From the NCBI GenBank assembly GCA_026225215.1, contig JAMFSI010000039.1:8897-72896 (forward strand): a stretch of DNA of 64,000 nt. Direction: 5' to 3'. Positions 2,251 through 51,608 of the stretch are shown piece after piece. Position numbers and translations under genes: made by a program. The notes under the pieces are model-generated. The model saw only the letters and a program-made list of their open reading frames with translations. It did no database searches and was not told the origin of the DNA. The stretch's first letter is position 1. Every line of letters starts with the position of its first letter. The stretch comes from Sphingomonas palustris (GTDB taxonomy: Bacteria; Pseudomonadota; Alphaproteobacteria; Sphingomonadales; Sphingomonadaceae).

Positions 2251-2398
2251 CTGATCCGAAACTTCGTTTCGGATAGTCTGTGCCGTCCCGCTCTCCCGGG
2301 TTGGTACCACCTACAGGGTACCTTAACTGGGTGGTACCAACCCGGGGGAGCGGGACGGCACAGACTTCGAAATCCGCTCATTCGCGGATTTCACATAG
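2251..2398. repeat. three-hairpin palindromic element, copy A (148 bp; flanks reversed relative to B-E)
   Basis: CTGA-TCCGAAAC ttc GTTTCGGA; ~40-bp stem GTCTGTGCCGTCCCGC...GCGGGACGGCACAGAC; GAAATCCGC tcattc GCGGATTTC; homologous to 31325, 48288, 48989, 51463. Confidence 0.95.
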
Positions 2399-2412
2399 GC
2401 CATTATAGATAT

Positions 2413-2438
2413 ACAGGTAAGCTGTAAAGGTTACCTGT
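2413..2438. promoter_or_regulatory. candidate MarR operator, ACAGGTAA-N10-TTACCTGT
   Basis: Perfect 8-bp inverted repeat in the AT-rich divergent intergenic region upstream of marR. Confidence 0.5.
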
Positions 2439-2459
2439 CGAATTGAACTAGAGGTAAAT

Positions 2460-2927
2460 ATGCGCTATTTTCTCGATACCGAGTTCAATGGCTTTGGCGG
2501 CGAGTTGATCTCGATTGCGCTGGTGCCGGAAGACGCCGAGCTGCCGCCGTTCTACCAAGCGATGATATGCCCTGCGCCGACCGATTGGGTCGCCGCGAAT
2601 GTCCTGCCCGTGCTGGCGACGATCCCGCTGACCCGCGAGGTGCTGGCCGACCGCTTTGCCGATTATCTGCTCGATGATGAAACGCCGCTGCTGGTCGCTG
2701 ATTGGCCGGAGGATATTGCCCACGCCGCGCAGCTGCTGGTGACGGGGCCCGGTCGCATGAAACCCGTTCGCAGCCTCCGCTTCGAACTGGTCGATCCCAA
2801 TATTATCGGTCCGGGTCTATCGGCGCTGGTGCCGCATAACGCCTGGCACGACGCGACCGCATTGCGCGCCACCGTGCTTGCGTATGAACGGAGAGTGGCC
2901 GTGAATCCCGATGTTTTTACGGGTTAG
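2460..2927 (+). CDS. DEDDh 3'-5' exonuclease (RNase AS/Rv2179c-like)
   Basis: FLDTEFNG (ExoI), WPEDIAH (ExoII), HNAWHDA (ExoIII); GAGGT RBS. Confidence 0.75.
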   Translation: MRYFLDTEFNGFGGELISIALVPEDAELPPFYQAMICPAPTDWVAANVLPVLATIPLTREVLADRFADYLLDDETPLLVADWPEDIAHAAQLLVTGPGRMKPVRSLRFELVDPNIIGPGLSALVPHNAWHDATALRATVLAYERRVAVNPDVFTG

Positions 2928-3858
2928 TGAAGACCACGCGATCGCCGGTCTGGCTCCAGGTCTGTTCGACCTGGGCCAGCGGCATACTGCTGGTCGCCAG
3001 CATCAGCTTGCCCGCTGCCGCCGCATCGAACACGCCGGCGATAGCGGCCAGCAATCGCGGCAGTGACACGCTACCGATACCGCTGCCCATCAGTTCCAGC
3101 GCCGAGGAGCGCAAGACCGCGCCGGGCAAGCGGATATCCGCACCGCTGGCGGCGCCGATCTGGACAAAGCGGATCGGCACCGCTTCGGCTGCCACCTTGG
3201 CGGCGGAAACCAGCAGATGCTCTGCGCTCATCCCCCACAAGTAATCGAGCACGACATCGACGCCGCGCGCGAACTCCGCCTTGAAGGCGGCGTCGAGCGC
3301 CTCGCCATTATCAGTCAGCGGGATGACCATGTCCGCGTCCAGGCTGTCCAGGACTGCGCGGTTGCGGCCCGTGGCGATAATGCGCGCGGCGCCCTTGGCC
3401 CGGGCGATTTGCACCGCCAACTGCCCCGAGGCGCCGGTCGCGCCGTTAATCAAGACCGTCTCACCGGGTTTGAACCGCGCGCGCTCGGTCAGCGCCGCCC
3501 AGGACGACATGCCGGGATTAGCGATGGCCGCGGCGGTGACGTCGTCGAGAGTGTCGGGCACCGGCAGGCAATTGCTGATCGATGCCAGTGATCGCTCGGC
3601 CATGGCGCCGAATGGCGCGCGCGGCAGGACGAAATAGACCCGGCGACCGTCGTCCAGCGTGCCGACCCCGTCCACCCCGGCGACGAAAGGAAAACCGCCT
3701 GAAGAACTGTAATGCGTGCCTGACGCACGAGCCCGCGTTAATTGGCTCAGCGCGCTCGCCCGAACCGCAATGCGTTGCTCGCCGGGGCCGGCTTGCGGTT
3801 CTGCGAAGTCTGCGAAAACGGGGGGATGTCCGGCGTCATGGACGATTGCTGCCTTCAT
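2917..3858 (-). CDS. MDR-family (quinone) oxidoreductase / Zn-binding dehydrogenase-like
   Basis: GVDGVG, LINGATGASG nucleotide-binding motif, DVVLDYLWG. Confidence 0.9.
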   Translation of the reverse strand: MKAAIVHDAGHPPVFADFAEPQAGPGEQRIAVRASALSQLTRARASGTHYSSSGGFPFVAGVDGVGTLDDGRRVYFVLPRAPFGAMAERSLASISNCLPVPDTLDDVTAAAIANPGMSSWAALTERARFKPGETVLINGATGASGQLAVQIARAKGAARIIATGRNRAVLDSLDADMVIPLTDNGEALDAAFKAEFARGVDVVLDYLWGMSAEHLLVSAAKVAAEAVPIRFVQIGAASGADIRLPGAVLRSSALELMGSGIGSVSLPRLLAAIAGVFDAAAAGKLMLATSSMPLAQVEQTWSQTGDRVVFTNP

Positions 3859-3900
3859 CTCAGGAATCTTTCATTTCGGGTTTGGCCTTTGACGCGCCGC

Positions 3901-4434
3901 TCATTCAGCGGCAGCGCTGCGAGTGCTGGCCTCGGCCCACCATGCTTCGATAGCAGGCAGTTCAGCTGGAAGTACGACGTAAAAGGGGGACGCAAAATTA
4001 TCCCACACCGCCATGAATTTCGGCGCTACCGAAGTCAGAATCGGCGCCCCGGCCTCGATTGCCTCGATGAACGCGGGCAGCAGTCCCGAGCCTTTTTCCG
4101 CCTCGAGCTTGCCGAATTTGCTGAGCACGACAAGATCGCAGCCCGAGGCAATGTCCCGCCGCACCTGTTCGCCGGCCTCGACCAGCGACGGACTATCAAG
4201 CGCGCAGCCCGCCGATCCGGGGCCAAGATCCTGAAAGATCGGAAAGCTGCCATCACCGCCAAGGTTGGACAGCCGACCCTGCACCCGGCTGCGGCTTTCG
4301 TTACGCGGGTCTTCGATCACCCCGACGATTCTGGCACGGGTTTGCCAATGCGCGACGAATTGCCCGATGAGCTGCTGGATCGCGGCGCTATCCGCGCCTT
4401 GCACCACGGCGATCGGCTTTATGGCTTTGTCCAT
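3901..4434 (-). CDS. DUF2478-family protein
   Basis: CALDSPSL...DLVVLSKFGKLEAE.GSGL...AIEAGAPILTSV; start moved to ATG 4434 (MDKAIKP). Confidence 0.8.
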   Translation of the reverse strand: MDKAIKPIAVVQGADSAAIQQLIGQFVAHWQTRARIVGVIEDPRNESRSRVQGRLSNLGGDGSFPIFQDLGPGSAGCALDSPSLVEAGEQVRRDIASGCDLVVLSKFGKLEAEKGSGLLPAFIEAIEAGAPILTSVAPKFMAVWDNFASPFYVVLPAELPAIEAWWAEASTRSAAAE

Positions 4435-4653
4435 GCCATGCTCCTTATGCCGGCCCTGCATCGGCCTGACAGGTGTTCGCGCCGAGCCATAGCATTTTAT
4501 CGTCGGCCGGAAAGCTTGCGCTGCTTCGGGAGCCATCCAGGAGCAGCCAAACCCGAACAAATTGCAGGCAAATTGTAAAATGCTTTGCTTCCAAAAACGG
4601 GATCGTAGATAGGCGGGTTGCCCGGGGGGGTGTCTAATTCCGGGGTTCGCGAT

Positions 4654-7600
4654 ATGTTTTCCTCCAGGCAAACCTCAGGCGCGCCGCGCGCAGGGGTGGA
4701 TTTACGGGCCGGAGCCGGCCTCGCCCTGATCATCCTGTTTTTCATTTTAAGCGGCGTCATTGCCTATTCCAACGTCAATGTGCTGCGCGACGATGCCACC
4801 AAAATTCAGCATTCGCATGATGTGATCGCCGCGCTCGACGAATTGCTGTCGACGATGCAGGATGCCGAAACCGGCCAACGCGGGTTTTTGCTGACCAGCA
4901 AGGAGCCCTATCTGGCTCCCTATGACGCTGCCGTCGCCCGCGCCGGACCGACCCTCGATCTGATCGCCAACCTTACTCGCGACAATCCATCGCAGCAGGC
5001 GCGGATGGTCCCGCTTCGCCGCCACGTCGATGCCAAGCTGGCCGAGCTGAAACAAACCATCGATCTGCGCCGGAGCGCCGGCAGCGACGCCGCCCTCGCC
5101 GTGGTCACCACCGATCGCGGCAAGGTCGAGATGGACGCCATCCGCACCCAGCTCGACCTGATGCAGCAGGAAGAAGCGCGGCTGCGCCAATTCCGGCAGG
5201 AGGAGATGTCCGGCGCTTATCAAACCGCCTGGGTCAGCGGCATCCTTTCCTGTCTGGTCGGCATCGTGCTGACCCTGGCCGTCGGTTTTCTGATCCGCCG
5301 GGCGACCGTGGCGCGCGAAAGGCTGCAGTGGCTGCAATCCGGCGAGGCGCGTTTGGCATCGGCGATGCTGGGGGACTTAGCTCCCGCCGAGTTGGGCGAA
5401 AACATCCTGAGCTTTCTGGCGCATTTTCTCGGGGGCCAGTGCGGCGCGATCTTCGCCGGCGACGGCGCGCATTACCAGCGGATCGCGGCCTATGGCGTGC
5501 CGGCGGATGCCAGGATCGTCGAGCGTTTTTCGCAGAAGGAAGGCTTGCTCGGACAAGTGGCGGCCGAACGCGCGCCGGCAATCTTGAGCGATATTCCCGA
5601 CGGCTATCTGGCGCTCGGCTCGGCGCTGGGACAAACCCAGCCGCGCCATGTGATCATTGCCCCGGCGATGGCCGATGATGTGGTTCGTGGCGTGGTCGAA
5701 CTCGGCTTTCTCCAGCCGGTGGGCGACCATGCGCAGGAGTTTCTCGCGATTGCAGCGGATGCGATCGGGATTGCGCTGCGATCGGCGGCCCTGCGCGCCG
5801 AATTGCAGAATTTGCTCGAGGAAACCCAGCGCCAGTCGGAGGAATTGCAGGTCCAGAGCGAAGAGCTGCGGGTCTCGAACGAGGAATTGGAGGAACAGGG
5901 ACGCGCGCTCAAGGAATCGCAGGTCCGCCTCGAACAGCAACAAGTCGAACTCGAGCAGACCAATTCCCAGCTGGAGGAACAGGCGGGGCAACTCGAAGCC
6001 CAGCGCGATGATCTCACCCGCTCGAATTCGGCGGTGGAATTGAAAGCGCGCGAGCTGGAGCGGGCGAGCCGCTACAAGTCGGATTTCCTTGCCAATATGT
6101 CGCACGAGCTGCGCACGCCGCTGAACTCGCTGCTGATCCTGTCCAAGCTGCTGTACGACAACCCCGCCGGCAATCTGACCGAAGACCAGGTCAAATATGC
6201 CCATACGATCCAGTCGTCCGGCAACGATCTGCTGCTGCTGATCAATGACATTCTTGATCTTTCCAAGATCGAGGCGGGGCAAGTCCAGGTGCGTCCGGAA
6301 ACGGTTTCGCTCGATCGGGTCGCTAATGACATGCGCCAGATGTTCCAGCCGCTCGCCAACGAGCGCGGGCTGCAATTCGATATCGACATCGCCGAGAACT
6401 GTCCCGCCACGATCGATACCGATCGTCAGCGCCTCGATCAGGTGTTGAAAAACCTACTCTCGAATGGCCTCAAGTTCACCGAAGCGGGCAGCGTTCGGCT
6501 TTCCCTGGCGCCAGCCGGTGCAGGTGAGATCGCCATTTCCGTCACCGACACGGGCATCGGCGTTGCCGAAGACCAACAGCGGGATATCTTCGAGGCTTTC
6601 CGCCAGGCTGACGGGACGATCAGTCGCAAATATGGCGGTACCGGGCTTGGTCTCTCGATTTCGCGCGAACTCGCGCGGTTGCTGGGGGGCAGCATTACCC
6701 TCACCAGCAAGCCTGGTGAAGGCAGTTGCTTCACGCTGACGCTCCCGCTGGCTTACGATCCCGCGCTGGTCGCGCCGCGCGCGGAACCTGCGCCGCTATC
6801 CCGCGAAAGCGCGGTGCTGGCGCTGCCAGTGAAACCGGCGCTGCTGCCGCGCAGAGTGGATGACGATCGCGAAAAATTAGAGACCAGTGGGCGGATTCTG
6901 CTGGTTGTCGAAGACGATGCCAGCTTTGCCGGCATCGTTCGGGATTTGTCGCGCGAGTTGGGATTCCAGTGCCTGGTCGCCGGGACCGCCGAGGAAGCCC
7001 TGCAACTGGCGCGCCAGTTCAACCCGAGCGCGGTGGTACTCGATGTCGGGCTGCCCGATCAGTCGGGGCTGGCGGTGCTCGATCGGCTCAAGCGCGATGT
7101 CGAGACGCGGCACATTCCGGTGCATGTCGTCTCCGCCAGCGATCATGGCCAAACCGCGTTGTCGCTCGGCGCGATCGGCTATTTGGTCAAGCCGGTGAAG
7201 CGCGAAGACCTCACCGAGGTGCTTGAAGCGCTCGCCGCGCAATTGGCGCGGACCGTGCGCCGGGTGCTGATCGTCGAGGATGACCCGGTCCAGCTCGATG
7301 CGGTCAAACGGTTGCTGGCATCGGGGGATGTCGAGACGGTGGGCGCGGGCACGGCTGCCGAGTGCTTGCAGCGTCTCACCGAAAACAGCTTCGATTGCAT
7401 CGTGCTGGATTTGACGCTGCCCGATGCCTCGGGCTTTGCCTTGCTGGAAACGCTGAGCGAGGATGGCAGCCACGGCTTCCCGCCGATCATCGTCTACACC
7501 GGGCACGATCTGTCTGCGGCGGACGAACAGCGGCTGCGGCGCTATTCCGATTCGATCATCATCAAAGGCGCGCGTTCGCCCGAGCGCTTGCTCGACGAAG

Positions 7601-8076
7601 TGTCGCTGTTCCTGCACCAGGTGGTAAAAGAACTACCCGCCGAGCAGCAGAAGATGATCCAGAAAGCGCGCAACCGCGATGCGATCCTGGAAGGGCGGCG
7701 CATCCTGATCGTCGAGGACGATGTCCGGAATATCTATTCGCTGACCAATATCCTCGAGCCGCGCGGTGCCGTGGTCGAGATTGCCCGGAACGGGCGGGAA
7801 GCGATCGAGGCGCTGGAGAAATCCGCGGGCAGCGATGCCAATGCGATCGACCTCGTGCTGATGGACGTGATGATGCCGGTCATGGATGGGCTGACGGCGA
7901 CGCGCGCCATTCGTCAGGATGCCCGCTGGAAAAAACTGCCGATCATCACCCTGACCGCCAAGGCCATGCCCGACGACCAGCAGCGCTGCATCGAGGCGGG
8001 GGCGAGCGATTACATGCCCAAGCCGCTCGACGTCGATCGGCTGCTATCGCTCGTCCGGGTCTGGATGCCGCGGTAG
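4654..8076 (+). CDS. hybrid histidine kinase: TM-CHASE3-TM-GAF-coiled coil-HisKA-HATPase-3xREC
   Basis: ETGQRGFLLT (CHASE3), FLANMSHELRTPLN, GGTGLGL, receiver motifs VLDVGLPD, VLDLTLPD, LMDVMMP; start uncertain (4618 or 4654). Confidence 0.95.
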   Translation: MFSSRQTSGAPRAGVDLRAGAGLALIILFFILSGVIAYSNVNVLRDDATKIQHSHDVIAALDELLSTMQDAETGQRGFLLTSKEPYLAPYDAAVARAGPTLDLIANLTRDNPSQQARMVPLRRHVDAKLAELKQTIDLRRSAGSDAALAVVTTDRGKVEMDAIRTQLDLMQQEEARLRQFRQEEMSGAYQTAWVSGILSCLVGIVLTLAVGFLIRRATVARERLQWLQSGEARLASAMLGDLAPAELGENILSFLAHFLGGQCGAIFAGDGAHYQRIAAYGVPADARIVERFSQKEGLLGQVAAERAPAILSDIPDGYLALGSALGQTQPRHVIIAPAMADDVVRGVVELGFLQPVGDHAQEFLAIAADAIGIALRSAALRAELQNLLEETQRQSEELQVQSEELRVSNEELEEQGRALKESQVRLEQQQVELEQTNSQLEEQAGQLEAQRDDLTRSNSAVELKARELERASRYKSDFLANMSHELRTPLNSLLILSKLLYDNPAGNLTEDQVKYAHTIQSSGNDLLLLINDILDLSKIEAGQVQVRPETVSLDRVANDMRQMFQPLANERGLQFDIDIAENCPATIDTDRQRLDQVLKNLLSNGLKFTEAGSVRLSLAPAGAGEIAISVTDTGIGVAEDQQRDIFEAFRQADGTISRKYGGTGLGLSISRELARLLGGSITLTSKPGEGSCFTLTLPLAYDPALVAPRAEPAPLSRESAVLALPVKPALLPRRVDDDREKLETSGRILLVVEDDASFAGIVRDLSRELGFQCLVAGTAEEALQLARQFNPSAVVLDVGLPDQSGLAVLDRLKRDVETRHIPVHVVSASDHGQTALSLGAIGYLVKPVKREDLTEVLEALAAQLARTVRRVLIVEDDPVQLDAVKRLLASGDVETVGAGTAAECLQRLTENSFDCIVLDLTLPDASGFALLETLSEDGSHGFPPIIVYTGHDLSAADEQRLRRYSDSIIIKGARSPERLLDEVSLFLHQVVKELPAEQQKMIQKARNRDAILEGRRILIVEDDVRNIYSLTNILEPRGAVVEIARNGREAIEALEKSAGSDANAIDLVLMDVMMPVMDGLTATRAIRQDARWKKLPIITLTAKAMPDDQQRCIEAGASDYMPKPLDVDRLLSLVRVWMPR

Positions 8077-10623: not shown

Positions 10624-10650
10624 AGCGGGCAGCTGTGATCGAAATCCACT

Positions 10651-10744
10651 CCCGTCCATACTGAGCTTGTCGAAGCATTGCCTTGTTCTTCGGGTAAGAC
10701 CCAGAAAAGAAAGGCAGTGCTTCGACAAGCTCAGGACGGACGGG
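10651..10744. repeat. REP-like palindrome, type CCCGTCC..GAGCTTGTCGAAGC (copy 1 of 3)
   Basis: Inverted arms CTGAGCTTGTCGAAGCA / TGCTTCGACAAGCTCAG; also at 34793 and 37644. Confidence 0.92.
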
Positions 10745-10789
10745 AAAAGGGTCCGGGGTCGCGGTTAGCTGCTGCGCACTTTGGCATCC

Positions 10790-19502: not shown

Positions 19503-19600
19503 TTGTGAAATTAAGCGGAAGCTGAGTCAACTGGTTTCGTATTGCTGGCAATGAAGGGCATCGAGGGCGCGCGCGGCATCGCCCTGTTAATCCAACGCAA

Positions 19601-19743
19601 AAATCCTCCCCCACTGGGGGAGGTGGCTCGCGTAGCGAGACGGCGGGGGTGTGCTGGAAAGCGTCAGGGAGAAGAAAGGATCTGCGAATCCGCCCCCACC
19701 GTCAGCCCTATGGGCTGCCACCTCCCCCAAAGGGGGAGGATTT
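19601..19743. repeat. REP-like palindrome pair, type CCTCCCCC..GGGGGAGG
   Basis: AAATCCTCCCCCACTGGGGGAGGTGGC ... GCCACCTCCCCCAAAGGGGGAGGATTT inverted doublet. Confidence 0.88.
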
Positions 19744-19751
19744 TAGATGAA

Positions 19752-22183: not shown

Positions 22184-22360
22184 CTCCCCGCCCGCTTGCG
22201 GGAGGGGTTGGGGGTGGGCATCTGCGCCCGCCGCAAGCTTTGGGCTGGAGGACCTAGCGCTAACATCGCCCGAAACCTGTCGCAATAATCCGGGCGTTTG
22301 CCACCAGGGTGAACATCGAAAAGTGCCCACCCCCGGCCCCTCCCGCAAGCGGGCGGGGAG
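22184..22360. repeat. REP-like palindrome pair, type CTCCCCGCCCGCTTGCGGGAGGGG (copy 1 of 2)
   Basis: ~37-bp inverted arms around a ~100-bp spacer; second copy at 30124. Confidence 0.92.
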
Positions 22361-26146: not shown

Positions 26147-26234
26147 CGTCATCCCGGCGAAGGCCGGGACCCAGAAACCCACCTATCGTCAATCGGTCAG
26201 GCTGGACTGGATTCCGGCCTTCGCCGGAATGACG
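26147..26234. repeat. REP-like palindrome pair, type CGTCATCCCGGCGAAGGCCGGGACCCAG
   Basis: Inverted doublet ending CTGGATTCCGGCCTTCGCCGGAATGACG, between convergent genes. Confidence 0.9.
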
Positions 26235-28817: not shown

Positions 28818-28922
28818 TAGAACGCGCTGGATGATTTCTCAATCATCCAGCGCGTTTTATCTCCTTGTGGTCGCATCGTTTTAACCGAAAAACCGGTGCC
28901 CACTTTTTCGGACGATGCTTGA
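28818..28922. repeat. ~105-bp double-hairpin element resembling alphaproteobacterial TAG-bounded repeats
   Basis: 16-bp perfect stem AACGCGCTGGATGATT/AATCATCCAGCGCGTT, then GCATCGT..CCGAAAAACCGGTGCCCACTTTTTCGG..ACGATGC. Confidence 0.7.
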
Positions 28923-30123: not shown

Positions 30124-30237
30124 CTCCCCGCCCGCTTGCGGGAGGGGCTGGGGGTGGGCACTTTCTTCCTATTCTTCCTGGTTCTGCGCCTAAAAAGAAG
30201 GGCCCACCCCCGGCCCCTCCCGTAAACGGGCGGGGAG
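30124..30237. repeat. REP-like palindrome pair, type CTCCCCGCCCGCTTGCGGGAGGGG (copy 2 of 2)
   Basis: Arms nearly identical to 22184; shorter, unrelated spacer. Confidence 0.92.
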
Positions 30238-31324: not shown

Positions 31325-31471
31325 CTGGTTCGAAACTCCCGTACCGGGAGTTTCCAAGTCTGTGCCGTCCCGCTCCCCCCGGGGTGGTACCACCCCGAGG
31401 GTACCTTTAACGGGTGGTTGGGCCGGGGGAGCGGGACGGCACAGACTATCCGAAACGAAGTTTCGGATCAG
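31325..31471. repeat. three-hairpin palindromic element, copy B (147 bp)
   Basis: GAAACTCCC gtacc GGGAGTTTC; central AGTCTGTGCCGTCCCGC stem; TCCGAAAC gaa GTTTCGGATCAG. Confidence 0.95.
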
Positions 31472-31974
31472 GCGCGTAAACGCATCGCATAAGAGGGATC
31501 GTTACGATTGCGCTCGCCTCCTCGGCTGCCGAAGCCCTGCTCTACCGGCGGGTTCGGATCGAGGCGGTTGAAATCGAGGAGCATGATGCGCCGGGCGATC
31601 CGCCACTCCCCATCGCGCCGCTCCATGCGGTCAATGTAGCGCCCCGAGGCGACAAAATCGCGCTCCGGTCCGGTATCGCTGGCAGCGATGCGGTGCGACG
31701 ATATGGTGTAATGCTCGGCCCAGGCGGCATCGCCATCGACTTCGACCAGTTGATTGCCGGTATTGTGCCAAGTGACGGTATAATTACTTAGCATCTGGCG
31801 GCCGAGGGCGATGAATTCATCGACATTGAGAGGCTTGTGCAGCTCGATCACCGCGTCGGGATGAAAACAGGAGCGCATCAATTCTTCGTCGCGGCGGTCA
31901 TTGGCCCGACAATAACGGATGTGGACATCCTTGATTTCGGATTCAGCGATCACATCGTCGATGGTCTTTGGCAT
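31468..31974 (-). CDS. SnoaL/NTF2-like protein
   Basis: RYCRANDRRD...HNTGNQLVEVDGD.AWAEHY...GRYIDRMERRDGEWRI..R; its stop codon lies in the terminus of element B. Confidence 0.9.
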   Translation of the reverse strand: MPKTIDDVIAESEIKDVHIRYCRANDRRDEELMRSCFHPDAVIELHKPLNVDEFIALGRQMLSNYTVTWHNTGNQLVEVDGDAAWAEHYTISSHRIAASDTGPERDFVASGRYIDRMERRDGEWRIARRIMLLDFNRLDPNPPVEQGFGSRGGERNRNDPSYAMRLRA

Positions 31975-34792: not shown

Positions 34793-34881
34793 CCCGTCCG
34801 TGCTGAGCTTGTCGAAGCATTGCCTTGTTCTTCTACCGGAGAAAAGAAGGACAGTGCTTCGACAAGCTCAGCATGGACGGG
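34793..34881. repeat. REP-like palindrome, type CCCGTCC..GAGCTTGTCGAAGC (copy 2 of 3)
   Basis: Same arms as 10651; between convergent genes. Confidence 0.92.
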
Positions 34882-37604: not shown

Positions 37605-37643
37605 AGAGGCCAGTCTGCGCCGAGGTGCAACGATGGAAACTAC

Positions 37644-37734
37644 CCCGTCCGTGCTGAGCCTGTCGAAGCACTGCCTTGTTCTTCTGGCAATCTCGAAAGG
37701 AAAGGCAGTCCTTCGACGGGCTCAGGAAGGACGG
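37644..37734. repeat. REP-like palindrome, type CCCGTCC..GAGCTTGTCGAAGC (copy 3 of 3, diverged)
   Basis: CTGAGCCTGTCGAAGCA / CCTTCGACGGGCTCAG; between convergent genes. Confidence 0.88.
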
Positions 37735-43905: not shown

Positions 43906-44016
43906 CGTTATTCGGTTGGCAATTATGCCGGACTTGACTGGCAGCATAAAGATAGTGCATGCGATTGGCCGACAGGCCGGCGCGAACGGTGGTGAGTGAT
44001 GCTTGCCACCCGGGCG

Positions 44017-44865
44017 TCATTTCTCGCCGCAGTTTTCATAATCATCGCCGCCGGTATCTACCCGCACGAACCGGCCTTCGCTGGGGAGGTACCGCCGAGC
44101 AAAGTAGCAACCGTGCGGGTCTCCGAGAGGAGACTCATAAGTAACGTGCCCAACAACATAGAGTGTTTCCCTGTTCGCGTTGGCAGGGACGTCTATCGAA
44201 AAACTCCATCGCGCGTCCCGCCCCCGGCTTATGCTCTTAGCAATCCCGCCAAGAGTATACGGCGGATAGGGGCTGTAATATCGAAGTTCGTTGCGCTCCG
44301 GATCACCCCATGCGGGGTTAATCATCGTGAGAGGCGACCAGACTACTTGGATATTGCTCCCAGTTATTTTAGCAATCGACTGCCCACCGTTGGCGATATT
44401 AGCCGATCCTTCAAAATGCGCCCCGGGCACGAGCTTAGGAATCCGGTCGTGGGGGTTCAGGGGGGAGCCACCGCGCTCCCAGAAGTGCAGGCCATTGAGC
44501 GCGAGTTTTGGAGGGAACGCTATATCGTGATCCTCGTCAGCTTGCCTTTTGGCGACCCTAAGCTGTTCCTGCATGGATTTCAGTTGGCAGAAGAATATGA
44601 CCCCTACAAAAATCGCGACGAAGAGAGCAAATACGTCGAGCCAAAAACGCATTCTCTCCCAAAAATCCTTGTCATTTGCCTTGCTCTGTTCGCGTTCTGC
44701 CTTGGCTTGGGCGCGGCGATCTATGGCATTAAGCGCGGAGACTATCTCTCGCCTTTGCTCATCCTTGTATGTTTCCCCATTTGCTGGCTCGGCCTGTCCC
44801 TCATTGTTAGCGATGCTTGCCCACCATTTCTTGACCGTCTCTATTCGGCCTTGCCCGTATGTCAC
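44017..44865 (-). CDS. IS passenger protein, single TM helix plus soluble domain, unknown function
   Basis: Open frame downstream of the transposase; TM FWLDVFALFVAIFVGVIFF; C-terminal YVVGHVTYESPLGDPHGCYF; start uncertain (GTG 44865). Confidence 0.65.
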   Translation of the reverse strand: MTYGQGRIETVKKWWASIANNEGQAEPANGETYKDEQRREIVSALNAIDRRAQAKAEREQSKANDKDFWERMRFWLDVFALFVAIFVGVIFFCQLKSMQEQLRVAKRQADEDHDIAFPPKLALNGLHFWERGGSPLNPHDRIPKLVPGAHFEGSANIANGGQSIAKITGSNIQVVWSPLTMINPAWGDPERNELRYYSPYPPYTLGGIAKSISRGRDARWSFSIDVPANANRETLYVVGHVTYESPLGDPHGCYFARRYLPSEGRFVRVDTGGDDYENCGEK

Positions 44866-44890
44866 TACGAGGCGGAAAATGGCTGGTGAA

Positions 44891-45799
44891 CTAGCAGGCA
44901 CTAATCGCCGCCCCAAAGATGTTGTCGTTGTTCTGGTTGTTATACCGAAATTGAAACTCGGCAACGTAGAGGGGCAGGTATTTGGCGCTGACCTTGTGAA
45001 AGGTCCCGACGACGCCGCGCTTCACGAGGCTCCAGAAGCCCTCAATCGTCTGGGTATGGATCGCGCCGACGACGTACTGGCCCTTGGAGTGGTCAACGGA
45101 GCGATGGATATAGCGGCCAGCCAAGGCGTTGTAGCCGGGGTACTGGTCGGTGCAGATCAGCGAGACGTGATCGCTCACGGCCTCACGCACGAAGGCCCCC
45201 AGCGCTTCCGTGGTGGCCTTGTCCAGCACCAGCGCCACGACGCTTCCGCCGCGCTCCACGGCCGCAACGATCATGGTTTTGCCGGGAGTGCCGCGACCGC
45301 CCTTGTGGGCTTGGCGGCGCACCGAGACGTGTTTGTTCTTCCACGAGCCGCCCACGTAAGTCTCATCGATTTCCACGATGCCCATGAGCTTGCGGAAGTT
45401 CTCGTCGGCCAGCCCGGCGCGGACCCGGTGGCACATGTACCAAGCCGTGCGGTAAGAGCCGAAACCCATGACGCGCTGCACTTGGAGCGCGGAGACGCCC
45501 TTTTTGCTCGTCAGCATCATGTGAATGACGTGGAACCATTCGCGCAGACCTTTATTCGTGTTTTCGAAGATGGTTCCAGCGATGACAGAGAACCGATAGC
45601 CGCTGTCGGGCGCGCAGGAATAGCATTGCCACTTGTAGGCCATGGTCTTTACCGAGAAGACCTTCTCCGTTTCACCGCAACGCGGGCAGACGATTACGCC
45701 ATGCGGCCAGCGGTGAGCGATCAGATAGTCAGCGCAATCTTCGTCGGTGACGAAGGCCAGCTCAAACTCGGGGATGGTCATTTGATGGATGCGAGCCAT
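44891..45799 (-). CDS. IS1595-family DDE transposase
   Basis: Zn ribbon CPRC...CYSC; EIDETYVGG, TDQYPGY, IEGFWSLVKR, EFQFRYN. Confidence 0.96.
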   Translation of the reverse strand: MARIHQMTIPEFELAFVTDEDCADYLIAHRWPHGVIVCPRCGETEKVFSVKTMAYKWQCYSCAPDSGYRFSVIAGTIFENTNKGLREWFHVIHMMLTSKKGVSALQVQRVMGFGSYRTAWYMCHRVRAGLADENFRKLMGIVEIDETYVGGSWKNKHVSVRRQAHKGGRGTPGKTMIVAAVERGGSVVALVLDKATTEALGAFVREAVSDHVSLICTDQYPGYNALAGRYIHRSVDHSKGQYVVGAIHTQTIEGFWSLVKRGVVGTFHKVSAKYLPLYVAEFQFRYNNQNNDNIFGAAISAC

Positions 45800-45876
45800 G
45801 AGGGCCTCCTATGACCAAAAATCTAGGTCATAAAGAACTGCCAGTCAAGTCCGGCATAATCGCCATTCGGTTTAAT

Positions 45877-45907
45877 GTCTGGAAATTAGCATAGCTAATT
45901 TCCAGAC
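45877..45907 (-). terminator. hairpin right after the galU stop, probable terminator
   Basis: GTCTGGAAATTAGC-ata-GCTAATTTCCAGAC, 14-bp perfect stem. Confidence 0.65.
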
Positions 45908-46806
45908 TAACCAGCCTCCAGCAATCGCTTCAGCAGCGCGCGGACGTCATCGGCCATATCCGGTCGGGCCAGCGCTAGAGCGACCGTCGCTTCGACGAAG
46001 CCGACCTTCGAGCCGCAATCGTAGCGTTTTCCGGCAAAGGTGACGGCGTGAAACGGTTGGTTGCCGATCATTTGCGCCATGGCGTCGGTCAGCTGGATTT
46101 CGCCACCCGCGCCAGTCTCCTGGGTTTTCAGCACGTTCATGACTTCGGGTTGCAGAATGTAGCGCCCGGAAACGATCAGGTTCGACGGCGCTTTGTCTAC
46201 TTTCGGCTTCTCGACCAGTCCGGTCACTTCGGTAAGCGTAGCGCCCGGCACCTCGCGCCGCGCGCCCGGCGCGATCACGCCGTAGCTCGAAACCTCGTCG
46301 TAGGGCACTTCGAGCACGGAAATGAGATTGCCGCCGACGTGGCTATAGGCATCGACCATCTGGCGCATGCAGCCAGGCTCGCCGATCATCAACTCGTCGG
46401 GCAGGAAGATCGCGAAGGGCTCATTGCCAACGATCGCCCGCGCGCACCAGATCGCGTGGCCGAGCCCCAGCGGCACTTGCTGGCGCACGGTGACCAGATT
46501 GCCCGGCTCGATTCGGGTCGGTTCGAGAATTTCTAGCGTTTTCGACCGGTTGCGCATCGTCGCTTCGAGTTCGAAGGCATGATCGAAGTGTTCGACGATG
46601 GCGGTCTTGCCGCGCCCGGTCACGAATACCAACTGCTCGATGCCGGCCTCGCGGGCCTCATCGACGGCATATTGGATCAGCGGTCGATCGATGATCGGCA
46701 GCATTTCCTTGGGGATGGCCTTGGTTGCCGGGAGAAAGCGCGTGCCCATGCCCGCGACGGGAAAAACGGCGGTACGGATCGGCTTAATCGGTGCATGTTC
46801 AGGCAT
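45907..46806 (-). CDS. galU: UTP--glucose-1-phosphate uridylyltransferase
   Basis: PVAGMGTRFLPATKAIPKEMLP, LGLGHAIWCA, VEKP, GEIQLTDA; start ATG 46806. Confidence 0.97.
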   Translation of the reverse strand: MPEHAPIKPIRTAVFPVAGMGTRFLPATKAIPKEMLPIIDRPLIQYAVDEAREAGIEQLVFVTGRGKTAIVEHFDHAFELEATMRNRSKTLEILEPTRIEPGNLVTVRQQVPLGLGHAIWCARAIVGNEPFAIFLPDELMIGEPGCMRQMVDAYSHVGGNLISVLEVPYDEVSSYGVIAPGARREVPGATLTEVTGLVEKPKVDKAPSNLIVSGRYILQPEVMNVLKTQETGAGGEIQLTDAMAQMIGNQPFHAVTFAGKRYDCGSKVGFVEATVALALARPDMADDVRALLKRLLEAG

Positions 46807-46999
46807 GAGCGGCCGGTTCCATAGCTGCGCCGCGTTGGGGGGATCGGGCGAGAAACGGAGCGCCAATTTCCCGCTGCGAACGGTAAGACCGAAGTGTCTC
46901 TTAAGCCGGATTTGGGTTGCAGGGCAAGCGTCACGATTGTGCAGTTGCACACTTCGTTGCGCCCCTTGCACCGGCGCGCGGACCAGCTAAACGATCGGA

Positions 47000-48283
47000 A
47001 TGGACAAGATTATCATACATGGTGGCGTGCGGTTGGCGGGTACCGTGCCGGTTTCGGGCGCCAAGAACGCGGCGCTCACACTGCTGCCTTGTGCGCTGCT
47101 CACCGACGAGCCGCTGACGTTGCGCAACTTGCCCCGCCTGGCCGATATCGACAGCTTCCAGCATCTGCTCAACCAGTTCGGCGTATCGACGATGATCGCC
47201 GGATCGCGGCCGGAGGATTTCGGTCGGGTCATGACGCTGGCGGCGACGCGGATCACCAGCACCGTTGCGCCCTACGAACTGGTACGCAAGATGCGCGCGT
47301 CGATCCTGGTGCTGGGGCCGATGCTGGCGCGCATGGGCGAAGCCAAGGTGTCCCTGCCCGGTGGCTGTGCGATCGGCAACCGCCCGATCGACCTCCATCT
47401 CAAGGTGCTGGAGGCGTTCGGCGCGACGATCGAATTGGCGGCGGGATACGTTCGCGCGATCGCTCCCGATGGCGGCCTGCCCGGCGGTGATTACAGTTTC
47501 CCGGTGGTATCGGTGGGGGCAACCGAAAATGCGCTGATGGCAGCGGTTCTCGCCAGCGGCACGAGCACCTTGCACAATGCCGCGCGCGAGCCCGAAATCG
47601 TCGATCTGTGCAATTTGCTGGTGGCGATGGGCGCGCAGATCGAGGGCATCGGCGGTTCCGATCTGACGATCCACGGCGTTCACCGGCTCCACGGCGCGAC
47701 TTATATGGTGATGCCCGATCGAATCGAGGCGGGCAGCTATGCTTGCGCAGCGGCGATCACCGGCGGCGAGGCGCTGCTGATGGGAGCGCGGATCGAGGAT
47801 ATGGCGGCCACCGTCCAGGCGTTGCGCGATGCCGGCGTGCTCTGCGAAGCGCGGCCCGGCGGCCTTTATGTGGCGGCGGATGGACCGATCCAGCCGGTGA
47901 CCTTGTCGACCGCACCATATCCCGGCTTCGCCACTGACATGCAGGCCCAGCTGATGGCGCTCTTGTGCCGCGCCGAAGGCGCCAGCGTGCTGACCGAGAC
48001 GATCTTCGAAAACCGCTACATGCATGTGCCCGAACTCAACCGGATGAGCGCGCATATCGAGACCAAGGGGCGCACCGCGATCGTCCACGGCGTCAAGCAG
48101 TTGATCGGCGCGGATGTCATGGCCACCGATCTGCGTGCCTCGATGAGCCTGGTGATCGCCGGGCTGGCGTCTTCGGGCGAAACCCAGGTCCACCGGCTGT
48201 ATCATCTCGATCGCGGTTACGAGCGGCTGGAGGAAAAGCTGGCGCTATTGGGCGCCGATATCGAGCGGGTAGGTGGAGATTAA
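47000..48283 (+). CDS. murA: UDP-N-acetylglucosamine 1-carboxyvinyltransferase
   Basis: [45 protein letters not shown]. Confidence 0.98.
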
Positions 48284-48287
48284 AGGC

Positions 48288-48474
48288 CTGATCCGAAACG
48301 AAGTTCAGCGAAGCGAAATCCGCGAAAGAGCGGATTTGGCTGCGCCGAACTCCGTTTCGAAGTCTGTGCCGTCCCGCTCCCCCGGCCCACCCACCCATAA
48401 GATAGTACCCTATCGGGTGGTTGGGCGGGGGGAGCGGGACGGCACAGACTATCCGAAACAAAGTTTCGGATCAG
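48288..48474. repeat. palindromic element, copy C (187 bp, longest; CTGATCCGAAAC...GTTTCGGATCAG terminal inverted repeat)
   Basis: Shares the central stem and right hairpin with A, B, D, E; extended branched left arm containing AAATCCGC..GCGGATTT. Confidence 0.95.
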
Positions 48475-48490
48475 ACACCAAAGCCCAACC

Positions 48491-48916
48491 TTATTTCGGT
48501 TGGTGGAACCCCATACAGACATCGACCGCGATGATGCGGTCGGCATCGTCGAACTCGTAGATCGAGATCGAACGGAGCGAGCTTTCGCTGCCGTCGGGCA
48601 TGACGCTGTGCTCATCGAGATCGAGATAGACGACGTTCCCCGCCTCGGTCGCGCGATACAAATACTTATTATAGACGCGGCTGGCGCCGTGCCATTCGTC
48701 CAGCATCGCGCGATAGGCCGACCAGTCTTTTTCCTCGTCGCGTTCGTTGCCGCGCCGCACGAAACGCTCGGTATCGACCAGCGGCAGCAGTGCGTCCCAG
48801 CCCTCATCGGAGGTGCGGTTGATGATCTTCGCCAGCGTGTCGCCATAAGCGATAGCGCGCTTGGTGCGGAGGCTGGTGATCTCGTCCTGCTTTGTCCAGT
48901 GACCCGCCATATTCAA
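48491..48916 (-). CDS. NTF2/SnoaL-like protein, bracketed by element copies C and D
   Basis: 141 aa; EAGNVVYLDLDE...SLRSISIYEFDDADRIIAVDV beta-sheet pattern. Confidence 0.75.
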   Translation of the reverse strand: MNMAGHWTKQDEITSLRTKRAIAYGDTLAKIINRTSDEGWDALLPLVDTERFVRRGNERDEEKDWSAYRAMLDEWHGASRVYNKYLYRATEAGNVVYLDLDEHSVMPDGSESSLRSISIYEFDDADRIIAVDVCMGFHQPK

Positions 48917-48988
48917 CTCTCCGTCTTGCTGTTTGCAAGATAGTCGTCACTGCAGCCACCGGGGGCAAGCTCTTTATACGGGTTTAGT

Positions 48989-49132
48989 CTGATCCAAATT
49001 TCGCAAAGGGCAAATTTTGGAGTCTGTGCCGTCCCGCCTCCCGGCCCAACCACCCACAGGGTACCTTTAACGGGTGATTGGACCGGGGGGGGCGGGACGG
49101 CACAGACTACCCGAAACGGAGTTTCGGATCAG
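48989..49132. repeat. three-hairpin palindromic element, copy D (144 bp)
   Basis: CTGATCCAAATTT..AAATTTTGG left hairpin, central stem, CCGAAAC gga GTTTCGGATCAG. Confidence 0.95.
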
Positions 49133-49139
49133 ACAATTC

Positions 49140-49886
49140 TCAGGGCGGGTCACTGTCAAAGCGGCCCCCGACATGCCACTCCTGCTCATAAATGATTTTC
49201 GCCGCCACCGCTTGCCCTCCGGCATCGCGCGCGGGATGAAAGCGAAAGCGTTTCTGGATGAGACGGCAAGTCAGATCGTCGAGAGTGGCATTGCCGCTGC
49301 TTTTCTGAGTCCGGCAGTCGCTCACCTTGCCCGCAGCATCGACCGAAACAAGCGCCTGGACTGTGGCCGTCAAAGGCGCCTGGCGCAGGGCTTCGGGCGT
49401 GTCCGAGGATTTGATCTCGCCGCCGACAAGCTCGGGATCGCTGCCGCCACCATCGCCATCGCCCGTTCCTCCCGCGCCCGATCCTGCGCCGCTGCCACCC
49501 GCGCCAATGCCGTTGCCCGTCGAGGCCGCCCCGGCCTCGGCGGCCATGCCCTGGCCCGGCGCGGGAGCCACCGGAAGCGGAGGGGGCGGTTTTAGCGGCG
49601 GTGTACGCGGCGCAACGAAAGGTGCCGCCAGGGCATGGCGAGCCGGCGGTGCTGCGGGTGCGGCACGCCGCGACGCTGCAGGATGTTTGGGTGGTGGAGG
49701 CGGCGGCGGGGTCCGCAAATCGAGCGAAGTCAAAGCAATTTGTGCGGCTGTGCGTAGAGCGGGCGCCGCTAATCCGTACACCAGGACCAGCGCTAGCCCG
49801 ACTTGCAACCCAGCTGCCAGAACACCACTGACGAGGCGTTTGCGACCGGCGTCGGCAGTGCTGTCGTACATCGCTGCGGCCCCCAT
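49140..49886 (-). CDS. TonB-family energy transducer-like protein
   Basis: N-terminal TM, Pro/Ala-rich linker, Gly-rich spacer, C-terminal VDAAGKVSDC...SSGNATLD..TC.LI..RFRF.PARD; start uncertain. Confidence 0.85.
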   Translation of the reverse strand: MGAAAMYDSTADAGRKRLVSGVLAAGLQVGLALVLVYGLAAPALRTAAQIALTSLDLRTPPPPPPPKHPAASRRAAPAAPPARHALAAPFVAPRTPPLKPPPPLPVAPAPGQGMAAEAGAASTGNGIGAGGSGAGSGAGGTGDGDGGGSDPELVGGEIKSSDTPEALRQAPLTATVQALVSVDAAGKVSDCRTQKSSGNATLDDLTCRLIQKRFRFHPARDAGGQAVAAKIIYEQEWHVGGRFDSDPP

Positions 49887-49921
49887 AAAACGCGGCGCGA
49901 CCGGCGCCGCGTCAGGCAGCA

Positions 49922-50212
49922 TCAGCGGTAATAGCCGCAGCGCTTGTTCTTCGAGATCGAGCGATCGATGGCGCGGCCGCCGAGCGCACCGGCAACGCCG
50001 CCAATGATCGGGCCGGCGAGCCCGCCGCCGATGATGCTGCCACCTACTACCGCACCGGCAACGCCGCCGCCGACCAAGCCAGCGGTCCCCGAGGAATGGC
50101 GGCAATGCCAATAATAGGTGCGACCGTGATACACGCGTGGCGGGTGATCGTCGGCGTGAGCGGCGATCGGCATGGCCAGCACCAGCGAGGCAAGGAGAAG
50201 GGCGCGCTTCAT
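49922..50212 (-). CDS. small exported glycine-zipper protein
   Basis: Signal peptide; GLVGGGVAGAVVGG...GGVAGALGGRAIDR. Confidence 0.8.
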   Translation of the reverse strand: MKRALLLASLVLAMPIAAHADDHPPRVYHGRTYYWHCRHSSGTAGLVGGGVAGAVVGGSIIGGGLAGPIIGGVAGALGGRAIDRSISKNKRCGYYR

Positions 50213-50288
50213 TGTAGTGATCTCCGGAAGGCGAACGAAATCAACAGAGCCTTAAATACTTGAAGACCTCATTTGTTGCACAGGCTTT

Positions 50289-50555
50289 TTAGGAAATTTC
50301 AGCAGTCTGTGCTGCGAGACGAGCAGCCAGCCCTTCAACAAGCCAAAGCCGGATGGCCCCTGCCAGCCCCGGCGGGGACTGCGCTGTGATCCTTTCGGTA
50401 TCGATCCGGGCTACCAGGGCGTTGACCGGCACGCCCTCGGTTTCGGCCGCGCCACGCAGCAAGTCCCAGAACAGCGGCTCCAGGCTGATCGAGGTCTTGT
50501 GCCCGGCGATCTCGATCGATCGCTTCACCGGGGGGTGGTAAGGTGTATCCATCAC
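50289..50555 (-). CDS. ribbon-helix-helix (RHH_4) protein
   Basis: VKRSIEIAGHKTSISLEPLFW..L...A.....LAGAIRLW. Confidence 0.88.
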   Translation of the reverse strand: MMDTPYHPPVKRSIEIAGHKTSISLEPLFWDLLRGAAETEGVPVNALVARIDTERITAQSPPGLAGAIRLWLVEGLAARLAAQTAEIS

Positions 50556-50617
50556 GCGCTACCGCCCAGGCCCAGGGTCATTGGGCGGGTCATTTTTGGC
50601 TGAGCCCCGACCGGGCT

Positions 50618-51340
50618 TCAGTACATATGTTGGCCGCCGTTGATCGACAGCGTCGAACCGGTGACGAAGCCGGCCTGTTCCGAACACAGAAATGCCACGC
50701 CGCGCGCGATCTCTTCGGCCTGGCCCAGGCGCCCGATCGGGATTTTGGCAATGATCTTGTCCAGCACCGGCTGCGGCACGGCGGAGACCATGTCGGTATC
50801 GATGTAGCCCGGCGCCACGGCATTGACGGTCACCCCGAATTTGGCGCCCTCCTGCGCCAGCGCTTTGGTGAAGCCGTGGATGCCCGACTTCGCCGCGGCA
50901 TAATTGACCTGGCCATATTGCCCGGACTGACCATTGACCGAGCCGACGTTGACCACCCGGCCCCAGCCCCTTTCGCGCATGCCCGCAAAAGTGGCCTTGA
51001 CCATGTTGAAACAGCCGCCGAGATTGATCCGCATCACCTCGTTCCAGTCATCGTAAGTCATCCGATGCAGTACGGCGTCGCGGGTGATGCCGGCATTGTT
51101 GACCACCACGTCGATCGGCCCGACTTCCGCCTCGACCTGCGCGCAACCATCGATGCAGGCCTGATGGTCGCCAACATCCCAGCAATAGGAAGGAATGCCC
51201 GTCACTTCGGTGAAGGCCTTGGCCTTTTCCGCATTGCCGCCGTAGTTTGCGGCCACGGTAAAGCCCTGGCTTCGCAAGGCAACGCTGATTGCCTCGCCGA
51301 TGCCCCGAGTGCCGCCAGTCACGATTGCGATGCGCGCCAT
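50618..51340 (-). CDS. phbB: acetoacetyl-CoA reductase
   Basis: TGGTRGIG, NNAGITRD, GQYGQVNYAAAKSG, INGGQHMY. Confidence 0.92.
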   Translation of the reverse strand: MARIAIVTGGTRGIGEAISVALRSQGFTVAANYGGNAEKAKAFTEVTGIPSYCWDVGDHQACIDGCAQVEAEVGPIDVVVNNAGITRDAVLHRMTYDDWNEVMRINLGGCFNMVKATFAGMRERGWGRVVNVGSVNGQSGQYGQVNYAAAKSGIHGFTKALAQEGAKFGVTVNAVAPGYIDTDMVSAVPQPVLDKIIAKIPIGRLGQAEEIARGVAFLCSEQAGFVTGSTLSINGGQHMY

Positions 51341-51462
51341 GTGCTCTTCCTTTCCCAACAGATTCGCTTGGTCATGCTAGGCGTGGGCAGGCCCCGCCGC
51401 AAGCTGGCCTTTCCCGATAGTCGAATGAATTGCCTCGAAAAATCGGATCAGATTCTTTGAGT

Positions 51463-51608
51463 CTAGTACGAAATCCGCGAAGAGCGGATTTCGAAGTCTG
51501 TGCCGTCCCGTTCCCCCCGGCCCAACCACCCCCAGGGTACCAGAACTGGGGGGTTGGGCCGGGGGGAACGGGACGGCACAGACTATCCGAAACAAAGTTT
51601 CGGATCAG
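51463..51608. repeat. three-hairpin palindromic element, copy E (146 bp)
   Basis: GAAATCCGC gaaga GCGGATTTC; central stem; TCCGAAAC aaa GTTTCGGATCAG. Confidence 0.95.

Follow-up and report, generated by a model that had tools for sequence, protein, structure and literature searches.

The window analyzed here is a stretch of 64,000 nucleotides from Sphingomonas palustris (assembly GCA_026225215.1, contig JAMFSI010000039.1, positions 8,897 to 72,896), and the subject is a short palindromic element that occurs in it five times. The source genome is Novosphingobium-like, with a G+C content of 63%, and the murA product of the window is 88-89% identical to named Novosphingobium proteins. A first-pass annotation, made from the letters alone, had placed five copies of the element between positions 2251 and 51608 and had assigned to each a left hairpin, a central stem, and a right hairpin. 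All five are present, and the three hairpins fold in every copy and on both strands. The copies, referred to as c1 to c5, belong to a palindromic repeat family that is so far undescribed and is of a familiar kind.

Five copies of a three-hairpin element

All five copies are intergenic and a stop codon lies within 0-16 nt of four of them. Copy c1 (2251-2398, minus strand, 148 bp) is oriented opposite to c2-c5 and is located between the divergent MarR gene (start 2236) and an open reading frame (ORF) at 2460-2927. In plus-strand order it consists of the right hairpin (2255-2273), the core hairpin (2275-2366), and the left hairpin (2369-2392). Its core has 37-bp arms, a distal stem with GGTACC, and a flipped loop. 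For an isochorismatase gene near c1 (1189-1752, within the 1-2236 region), the protein collection contains no homolog above 75% identity and, because of this, the c1-bearing segment appears to be accessory and not common to the closest relatives.

Copy c2 (31325-31471, plus strand, 147 bp) lies between tandem genes, that is, between the stop codon of a SnoaL-like gene and DUF1272/thiD, upstream of the latter. Its left hairpin spans 31332-31354 (GAAACTCCCG/CGGGAGTTTC), its core 31357-31447, and its right hairpin 31449-31467; the distal core stem is chimeric and unpaired. The terminal TCA of c2 (31468-31470) provides the SnoaL-like gene (31468-31974, minus strand) with its stop codon, and this gene keeps 168 aa, the length found in nearly all homologs.

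Copy c3 (48288-48474, plus strand, 187 bp) fills the gap between two convergent genes, murA (stop at 48283) and a 141-aa ORF (stop at 48491). It has a compound left hairpin (48291-48359), a core with a flipped loop (48361-48450), and a right hairpin (48452-48470). The outer stem of the compound hairpin, CGAAACGAAGTTC...GAACTCCGTTTCG, is similar to the right hairpin and is interrupted by a GAAATCCGC...GCGGATTT hairpin like those of c1 and c5. This nested hairpin accounts for the extra 40 nt of c3. Copy c4 (48989-49132, plus strand, 144 bp) lies between the start region of the 141-aa ORF and a TonB-like gene (stop at 49140), and consists of an imperfect left hairpin (~48994-49019, 9/11 pairs), the core (49021-49108), and the right hairpin (49110-49128). 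Copy c5 (51463-51608, plus strand, 146 bp), between the stop codon of an OMP-like gene (51621) and the start of an SDR gene (51358), has its left hairpin at 51470-51492, its core at 51495-51584, and its right hairpin at 51586-51604.

The core hairpin has stem arms of 36-37 bp and an overall length of ~90 nt. The left hairpin varies inside a GAAA...TTTC clamp, and the right hairpin is conserved. The 16-mer AGTCTGTGCCGTCCCG occurs 10 times in the window, once per core arm of the five copies, where dinucleotide shuffles predict 0.64 occurrences (0/100 shuffles reach 10). Likewise, the right-hairpin pattern TCCGAAAC-NNN-GTTTCGGA occurs five times compared to 0.30 expected. For all five copies, and for either strand, folding as RNA yields the three hairpins with minimum free energies of -86 to -144 kcal/mol. 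Folding as DNA yields -48 to -76 kcal/mol; the z-scores lie between -9 and -20, and none of 200 shuffles is as good. No real ORF is contained within the 144-187-bp copies. The hairpins were also considered as intrinsic terminators. This reading was dropped since no T run follows any hairpin of c1-c5, and a terminator scan places no site on c3, c4, or c5. Integron attC, CRISPR, retron, and tRNA-derived readings were dropped as well, there being no array and no adjacent integrase, Cas, or reverse transcriptase gene.

Insertion polymorphism, copy number, and termini

Syntenic contigs of relatives were obtained via homologs of murA and of the SnoaL-like protein. The c3 site is empty in contig L054, whose murA is 96% identical: the stop codons of murA and of the convergent gene are 4 nt apart, and the window contains 202 additional bases. 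The same contig is empty at the c4 site, where only 8 nt separate the TonB-like stop from the start region of the next gene (TTTATGC|CTCAGCG) and the window differs by c4 and a few unaligned bases. At the c2 site, contig L062 (SnoaL-like protein 91% identical) has the stop codon, 12 nt, and then window-homologous sequence, while in the window c2 directly follows the stop. A more distant contig, L059 (murA 89%), is empty at both the c3 and c5 sites. In a further lineage, represented by L055-L058 (murA 93%), a core element is found exactly at the c5 site but with other flanks, GTCTGTTTGGAAAA-core-CGAAAAGCGCGCTTGCGCGCTTTTCCAAACAGAC. A solitary terminus of this L055 type, TTTTCCAAACAGAC, is located at 12899-12916 of L055 directly after the stop codon of the SDR gene, and in L021 and L030 a core element directly follows the stop of the orthologous SDR gene. 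With the copies of the window, L055, L021, and L030 adjoining it, the SDR gene is thus flanked by such elements in several lineages. Mobility is supported by this insertion polymorphism between relatives. The proposal that the element is mobile and non-autonomous is supported by the empty sites at c2, c3, and c4 in close relatives, together with the ~10^2 copies with many different flanks described below. As a separate observation, the 141-aa ORF (48491-48916), which is of unknown function and bracketed by the same-orientation copies c3 and c4, is element-free in L054 and absent from the L055 lineage; its start region has a 2-nt indel relative to the 159-aa L054 version.

The copy number was estimated from a root-nodule metagenome run, X1, that covers 93% of the window sequence and whose contigs were aligned to c5 and c1. 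Word depth in X1 is 10.5-13.6 in the unique flanks, rises to 620-1,150 in the core arms, and reaches 1,400-3,800 in the right arm, right hairpin, and terminus. The element is therefore ~50-340 times deeper than its flanks, which corresponds to ~50-340 copy-equivalents at the coverage of the source genome and is consistent with the density of five copies per 64 kb in the window. The run yielded 115 contig pieces on c5 and 174 on c1, and many different sequences continue past the ends of the element. In the L055 lineage, two contigs (L056 and L058) end within the element, as expected of a multi-copy repeat. The family would account for ~1% of one genome; being very abundant and undescribed, it adds to a small catalogue of alphaproteobacterial palindromic elements. 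On the practical side, it breaks short-read assemblies, puts strong stem-loops into operons, and is a possible marker for strain typing.

The metagenome contigs also defined the termini. All ten ends of c1-c5 read GY|CTR, as the first-pass annotation had described, and the conserved termini lie 3 nt beyond the ends given there, as TGTCTGATCCGAAA...TTTCGGATCAGACA. At the point where other X1 contigs stop matching, the common sequence starts at TGTCTGATCC on one side and runs on as ...GCGGATTTCGGATCAGACA on the other; in c1, this conserved terminus begins at 2248. The canonical end of the unit is a 14-nt terminal inverted repeat (TIR), TGTCTGATCCGAAA, and CTGATCCGAAA is found at both ends of c3 and of c4, in keeping with the TIRs that define a MITE (miniature inverted-repeat transposable element). 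Weak further similarity (NNAAAG) extends to ~9 nt beyond the ends, and because of this the exact tips are uncertain. The flanks of the copies show only a weak GY...RC preference. That the copies lack a target duplication was upheld: no flanking direct repeat is present at the five window copies or in the three filled-versus-empty comparisons (c2, c3, and c4). A fixed insertion target CTGA/TCAG, suggested by c2, was rejected since the empty sites of c3 and c4 do not fit it.

An additional partial end copy (AAATCGGATCAGA) lies to the left of c5 at 51441-51456, and to its right, at 51609-51627, TCAG is duplicated with CCAC between (GCGCTCAG-CCAC-TCAGAAC). Taken with the different element that L055 has there, these extra end sequences may have been left behind by an insertion or excision that happened earlier.

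Conservation of pairing and a modular core

Nine full copies were aligned over 55 pairs, and 95.4% of the cells are standard pairs. Both sides have changed at 12 of the 55 pairs, compared to 4.4 ± 1.5 in column shuffles (0/500 as high), and sliding the 3' partner by 1-3 columns gave only 1-4 two-sided pairs. For 25 cores from ~12 genomes, aligned over 37 pairs, two-sided changes are present at 10 pairs (45 cells). The corresponding shuffles gave 5.2 pairs (12.3 cells), with 0/500 as high, and the slid controls gave 2-6 pairs. Two-sided changes are present in all three hairpins. In the left hairpin, the inner 5 bp vary (TCCGC, CTCCCG, TTCGC, and CGCGC) within the retained GAAA...TTTC. The right hairpin of L046, a locus in a Novosphingobium metagenome-assembled genome (MAG), reads CCGGAAC/GTTCCGG where the others read CCGAAAC/GTTTCGG. 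One pair, T51511...A51568, is private to c5; the other X1 copies have C (619/629 depth units) and G (1,076/1,086) there.

These counts, 12 versus 4.4 ± 1.5 and 10 versus 5.2 pairs, lend statistical support to the earlier suggestion that the left hairpin stays paired and that core changes are largely compensatory. The broader suggestion, that the family conserves structure rather than sequence, applies only to the distal core and the left hairpin; in the right hairpin and the basal core stem, the sequence itself is conserved. The conserved sequence of the stem base and right hairpin in turn suggests recognition by a protein. It should be noted that, in a DNA palindrome, a single event of hairpin-templated repair or template switching can alter both sides of a pair, so that two-sided changes need not reflect selection on RNA. 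The retained pairing may thus derive partly from palindrome-templated DNA repair or copy choice, and not from selection alone.

The distribution of the core was determined with an exact-pattern scan of one genome per species across 185,579 species, in which 11 basal-stem bases were required by the pattern. Among the 46 matches, 18 are core-bearing loci, distributed over ~12 genomes with 1-5 matches per genome. The carriers are Sphingomonadales MAGs, Novosphingobium sediminicola, a Pacificimonas MAG, MAGs labelled uncultured Alphaproteobacteria, and a MAG labelled Rhodospirillales. The complete three-hairpin unit was found in only one of the scanned loci, L046. A metagenome scan for the junction of core arm and right hairpin returned seven matches, four of which are true copies (one truncated); the other three are the coding motif ERWDGTGYP of HD-GYP proteins and were discarded. 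No match was found in a plasmid BLAST search with c5 or in a scan of viral contigs with the core pattern. Since matches outside the source lineage are sparse, the pattern fits a lineage-specific burst. The genome scan also returned palindromes from Streptomyces and elsewhere that have only the 11-mer in common with the core and are unrelated. The Streptomyces palindrome, which is conserved in many genomes of that genus, is ~59 nt long, GTGCCGTCCCGG...CCGGGACGGCAC, and often lies beside a second palindrome, GCCGTCCCGG...CCGGGACGGC (L001, L003-L005, L009, L011, L013, L016, L017, L019, L023, L029, L031, L041, and L042).

Other lineages keep the basal 20-23 bp of their core stem (CTGTGCCGTCCCGCTCCCCC) nearly intact, while each has its own distal stem, loop, and, most markedly, flanks. 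In one MAG, for example, five copies of the core are framed by CTAGAGTCGATTGCAG...CTGCAATCGACTCTAG, and in another a GGACATCCGTCC hairpin lies beside it. Because the core recurs across Sphingomonadales with different flanks, the three-hairpin element is a composite that rests on an older, order-wide module. The core loop of 16-18 nt (ACAGGGTACCTTTAAC-like) is found facing either way with respect to the asymmetric flanks, in two separate families. In the three-hairpin family it faces one way in c2, c4, c5, L046, and L050 and the other way in c1, c3, L049, and L052, and in the five-copy family of the MAG D8_MAG_00049 it is flipped between L007 and L010 on the one hand and L018 on the other. These flips point to inversion between the arms, probably by replication template switching or recombination within the palindrome.

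Some intergenic regions carry a core element in more than one lineage. Just upstream of the conserved promoter/leader region of rplJ, it is complete in L036 (2240-2800) and truncated to one arm and the right hairpin in L047 (860-1340). Upstream of an enoyl-CoA hydratase gene, a core element is present in both L014 and L033.

Mode of propagation, known families, and other palindromes

A transposase with matching ends, of the REP-associated tyrosine transposase (RAYT)/HUH or the DDE type, had been proposed as a partner to look for, and this search was carried out. Pfam scans covered essentially all genes of the window. The only transposase detected is of the IS1595 family (44891-45799, minus strand, domains DDE_Tnp_IS1595 and Zn_ribbon_IS1595), and belongs to an insertion sequence (IS) at 43918-45864 with 28-bp TIRs (GGCAATTATGCCGGACTTGACTGGCAG...), flanked by the 8-bp target duplication ATTCGGTT. 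This IS holds an unannotated 315-aa passenger ORF at 44017-44964; in the syntenic contigs L054 and L055, the interval from Peptidase_M23 to NTP_transferase lacks the IS. It was rejected as the mobilizer since its TIRs are unrelated to the ends of the three-hairpin element. Every core arm found has its partner within ~100 nt, barring a few weakly matching or truncated copies, so that the loci examined show no long element with the arms as its boundaries. A parent IS with matching ends was found neither in the window nor in those other loci.

Our current hypothesis, to which we assign a probability of roughly 0.6, is that the element is a palindromic repeat mobilized in trans, MITE- or REPIN-like (a REPIN being a hairpin formed by two repetitive extragenic palindromic [REP] sequences), and probably handled as folded single-stranded DNA. 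A non-autonomous, noncoding repeat of the kind represented by MITEs, REPINs, and bacterial interspersed mosaic elements (BIMEs) would have grown to ~10^2-3x10^2 copies in one Novosphingobium-like lineage, moved by an enzyme encoded elsewhere in the genome. This enzyme would act on folded single-stranded DNA, recognizing the right end and the conserved base of the stem in a HUH/Y1- or RAYT-like manner, and only foldable copies would propagate. Such a filter for foldability, together with palindrome-templated correction, would keep the stems paired while their sequence drifts. A copy that lands in an operon would be co-transcribed and would act only as a generic strong mRNA stem-loop. The points in favor of a single-strand mechanism (HUH-type, RAYT-like) are the lack of a target duplication, the end hairpins, the conserved stem base, the equal folding of both strands, and the retained pairing.

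Several observations weigh against this hypothesis. No Y1/HUH gene (Y1_Tnp) is present in the window, and 85 ORFs adjoining the core in 21 loci include no recurrent transposase and no Y1_Tnp among the families listed; RAYTs are moreover reported to be rare in Alphaproteobacteria (PMC5581495). The related element of L055 is bounded by a 7-bp direct repeat, GCTCAGA, and a 14-nt TIR and TGT...ACA termini are more usual in DDE transposons than in elements of the IS200/IS605 type. The DNA of the relatives is only ~76-85% identical over the aligned flanks, with a few unaligned bases at each junction, so that short duplications or the exact ends are possibly blurred. Part of the X1 depth could derive from related strains, and since pairwise identity among the five copies is only 68-85%, recent activity is not directly shown. 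Finally, a search of sequencing runs with the window sequence found no RNA run that contains it.

The element could instead be a type II MITE of the ordinary sort, derived by deletion from a DDE IS and moved by cut-and-paste through its 14-nt TIRs, with the hairpins incidental. The TIRs TGTCTGATCCGAAA...TTTCGGATCAGACA with their TGT/ACA tips, the small (<300 bp) noncoding unit, the site polymorphism between relatives, the direct repeat of the L055 variant, and the presence of an IS in the host genome (the IS1595-family element with its 8-bp duplication) all agree with this. We nevertheless consider it unlikely because a target duplication is absent from the five window copies and the three filled-versus-empty comparisons, the sole IS of the window has unrelated ends, and the examined loci show no long element that has these ends, or single core arms, as its boundaries. 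Nor does it explain why internal stems keep pairing through double changes, or why an order-wide core occurs with different termini. Another account starts from host selection, as proposed for REP/BIME sequences: the element would serve as a DNA or mRNA structure, whether a protein-binding site, intergenic punctuation, or an mRNA stabilizer or processing site, and its mobility would be secondary or extinct. The sequence of the basal core stem is indeed conserved across genera, the same intergenic regions (rplJ, enoyl-CoA hydratase, and SDR) are reused, and copies sit just past stop codons, with c4 at a junction of 8 nt in L054 and thus probably co-transcribed. However, the closest relatives do without the element at three of four testable sites with no loss of genes, copy number ranges from 1-5 to hundreds between genomes, and the reused regions differ in the exact positions and flanks of their elements. 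There is also no terminator tail and no fixed orientation, and a host-serving role is in our estimation quite improbable.

The first-pass annotation had left the class of element open between MITE-, REPIN-, and noncoding RNA-like. The MITE/REPIN-like part is sustained by the empty sites and the high copy number; the RNA part is not. Structured noncoding RNA genes or cis-regulatory RNAs, selected as RNA, would account for the very stable predicted folds and for covariation above the controls, but this is a very improbable reading. In the nine full copies, seven G·U cells are balanced by eight A·C cells (an A·C cell would be G·U on the complementary strand), and the two strands fold equally well. 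Orientation to the flanking transcription varies, with the right hairpin first in c2, c4, and c5 and the left hairpin first in L046 and L050, and the loops flip. No promoter or terminator signal accompanies the copies, and their presence differs between close relatives. Rfam returned no match for the whole window at the gathering threshold; at E<=10, positions 47900-51900 matched only generic miRNA-precursor models at about half the gathering score or less. Taken together, the G·U/A·C balance, the equal folding, the variable orientation, and the lack of an Rfam family near threshold disfavor a strand-specific RNA gene. Copies c4 and c2 are likely transcribed passively, as they are sited between closely spaced (8 nt in L054) and tandem genes, respectively. 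With each transcribed copy the mRNA would gain a stem of ~-100 kcal/mol, and effects on processing or stability are plausible.

A bolder version of the trans-mobilized repeat concerns the core alone. The ~90-nt core might be an ancient, vertically persisting replicator of the Sphingomonadales, analogous to a REPIN, which is served by a dedicated single-copy enzyme other than a classical RAYT, exchanges its side hairpins, and has recently burst in this lineage. We regard this as distinctly unlikely. If true, it would extend the model of a domesticated transposase plus a hairpin population to Alphaproteobacteria, with a new enzyme-substrate pair. More generally, the enzyme, if found, could represent a new HUH-like or other single-strand transposase system where RAYTs are rare.

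The description of the element as not belonging to a named family stood, as no match was found in Rfam or the repeat literature. Among the papers searched, a query with the core sequence returned only unrelated ones, and none described such a repeat (MITE or REPIN) for Novosphingobium or Sphingomonadaceae. The combination of features is unusual: TIRs without target duplication, three covarying hairpins, an order-wide core in different flanks, and a flipping loop. The BIMEs of E. coli and other mosaic intergenic repeats are similar in that a conserved palindromic module is mixed with short motifs in lineage- or copy-specific arrangements, including nested units as in c3. Their module sequences are different, however, and in the present family it is the complete three-hairpin unit that recurs within one genome.

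Further likenesses are found in REPINs and the REP-RAYT system (PMC3116915, PMC3733652), which are also high-copy, chromosomal, intergenic, and noncoding, with a ~90-nt hairpin of two inverted arms. Retained pairing, the lack of target duplications, absence from the searched plasmid and viral collections, and order-wide persistence (of the core) are further shared features. As in a REPIN, two inverted arms form one hairpin and are strongly over-represented (the 16-mer at 10 versus 0.64 occurrences, and the X1 depth). A REP arm is defined as a 20-40-nt palindrome with a GTAG or CGTC head (PMC3733652), whereas the present arm, AGTCTGTGCCGTCCCGCTCCCCCGGCCCAACCACCC, is not self-complementary and has no terminal GTAG/CGTC tag. 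In contrast to REPINs, the present element has two extra side hairpins and a 14-nt TIR, and no RAYT gene was found in the window or among the 85 neighboring ORFs. The CGTC-type REPs of alphaproteobacteria have no known transposase (PMC3733652).

The MITEs Correia/NEMIS, ERIC, and RUP (PMC10969869) resemble the element in size (100-190 bp), in their TIRs, in their intergenic position, often just downstream of genes, and in their long stem-loops with possible co-transcription. Unlike the present element, they have target duplications (TA for Correia), and many have a known parent IS. The miniature elements derived from IS200/IS605 (PATEs) share subterminal hairpins at both ends, the lack of a target duplication, and plausible single-strand recognition. 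The ends of IS200/IS605 are not mutual inverted repeats, however, and these elements insert 3' of a fixed tetra- or pentanucleotide, whereas here a TIR is combined with a weak GY/RC flank preference and no TnpA was seen. The CcrM-associated intergenic repeats (CIRs) of Caulobacter, as relayed from Chen & Shapiro 2003 in PMC10969869, are alphaproteobacterial, strictly intergenic, and longer than 100 bp, with inverted repeats inside. In that account they are defined by clustered GANTC (CcrM) sites, whereas the five present copies contain one GANTC site in total.

The window contains other palindromes. A second family, CCCGTCCGTGCTGAGCTTGTCGAAGCATTGCCTTGTTCTTC and its complement, is present as two full ~90-nt hairpins and one half copy (10650-10745, 34793-34881, and 37643-37685), all intergenic and unrelated to the three-hairpin element. 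A third, CTCCCCGCCCGCTTGCGGGAGGGGCTGGGGGTGGGCA, has 37-40-bp arms and occurs at 22184-22360 (spacer of 103 nt) and, just downstream of the thiD stop codon, at 30124-30237 (34 nt). The head-to-head pair CGTCATCCCGGCGAAGGCCGGGACCCAG/CTGGATTCCGGCCTTCGCCGGAATGACG at 26147-26234 looks like a dimer of the CGTC-tagged REPs that have been described in alphaproteobacteria including Sphingomonas wittichii and Sphingobium chlorophenolicum (PMC3733652). A 145-nt composite palindrome with inner hairpins, AAAATCCTCCCCCACTGGGGGAGGTGGC...GCCACCTCCCCCAAAGGGGGAGGATTTT, occurs once in the window (19600-19744). Between divergent genes, a near-perfect 19-bp hairpin with A-/T-rich flanks (28818-28859, TAGAACGCGCTGGATGATT-TCTC-AATCATCCAGCGCGTTTTA) may be a bidirectional terminator or operator. 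Lastly, a perfect 14-bp hairpin, GTCTGGAAATTAGC-ATA-GCTAATTTCCAGAC, directly follows the stop codon of the NTP_transferase gene (45877-45907) and has the GTCTG...GAAA...TTTC...CAGAC layout of the side hairpins of the element, without the core.

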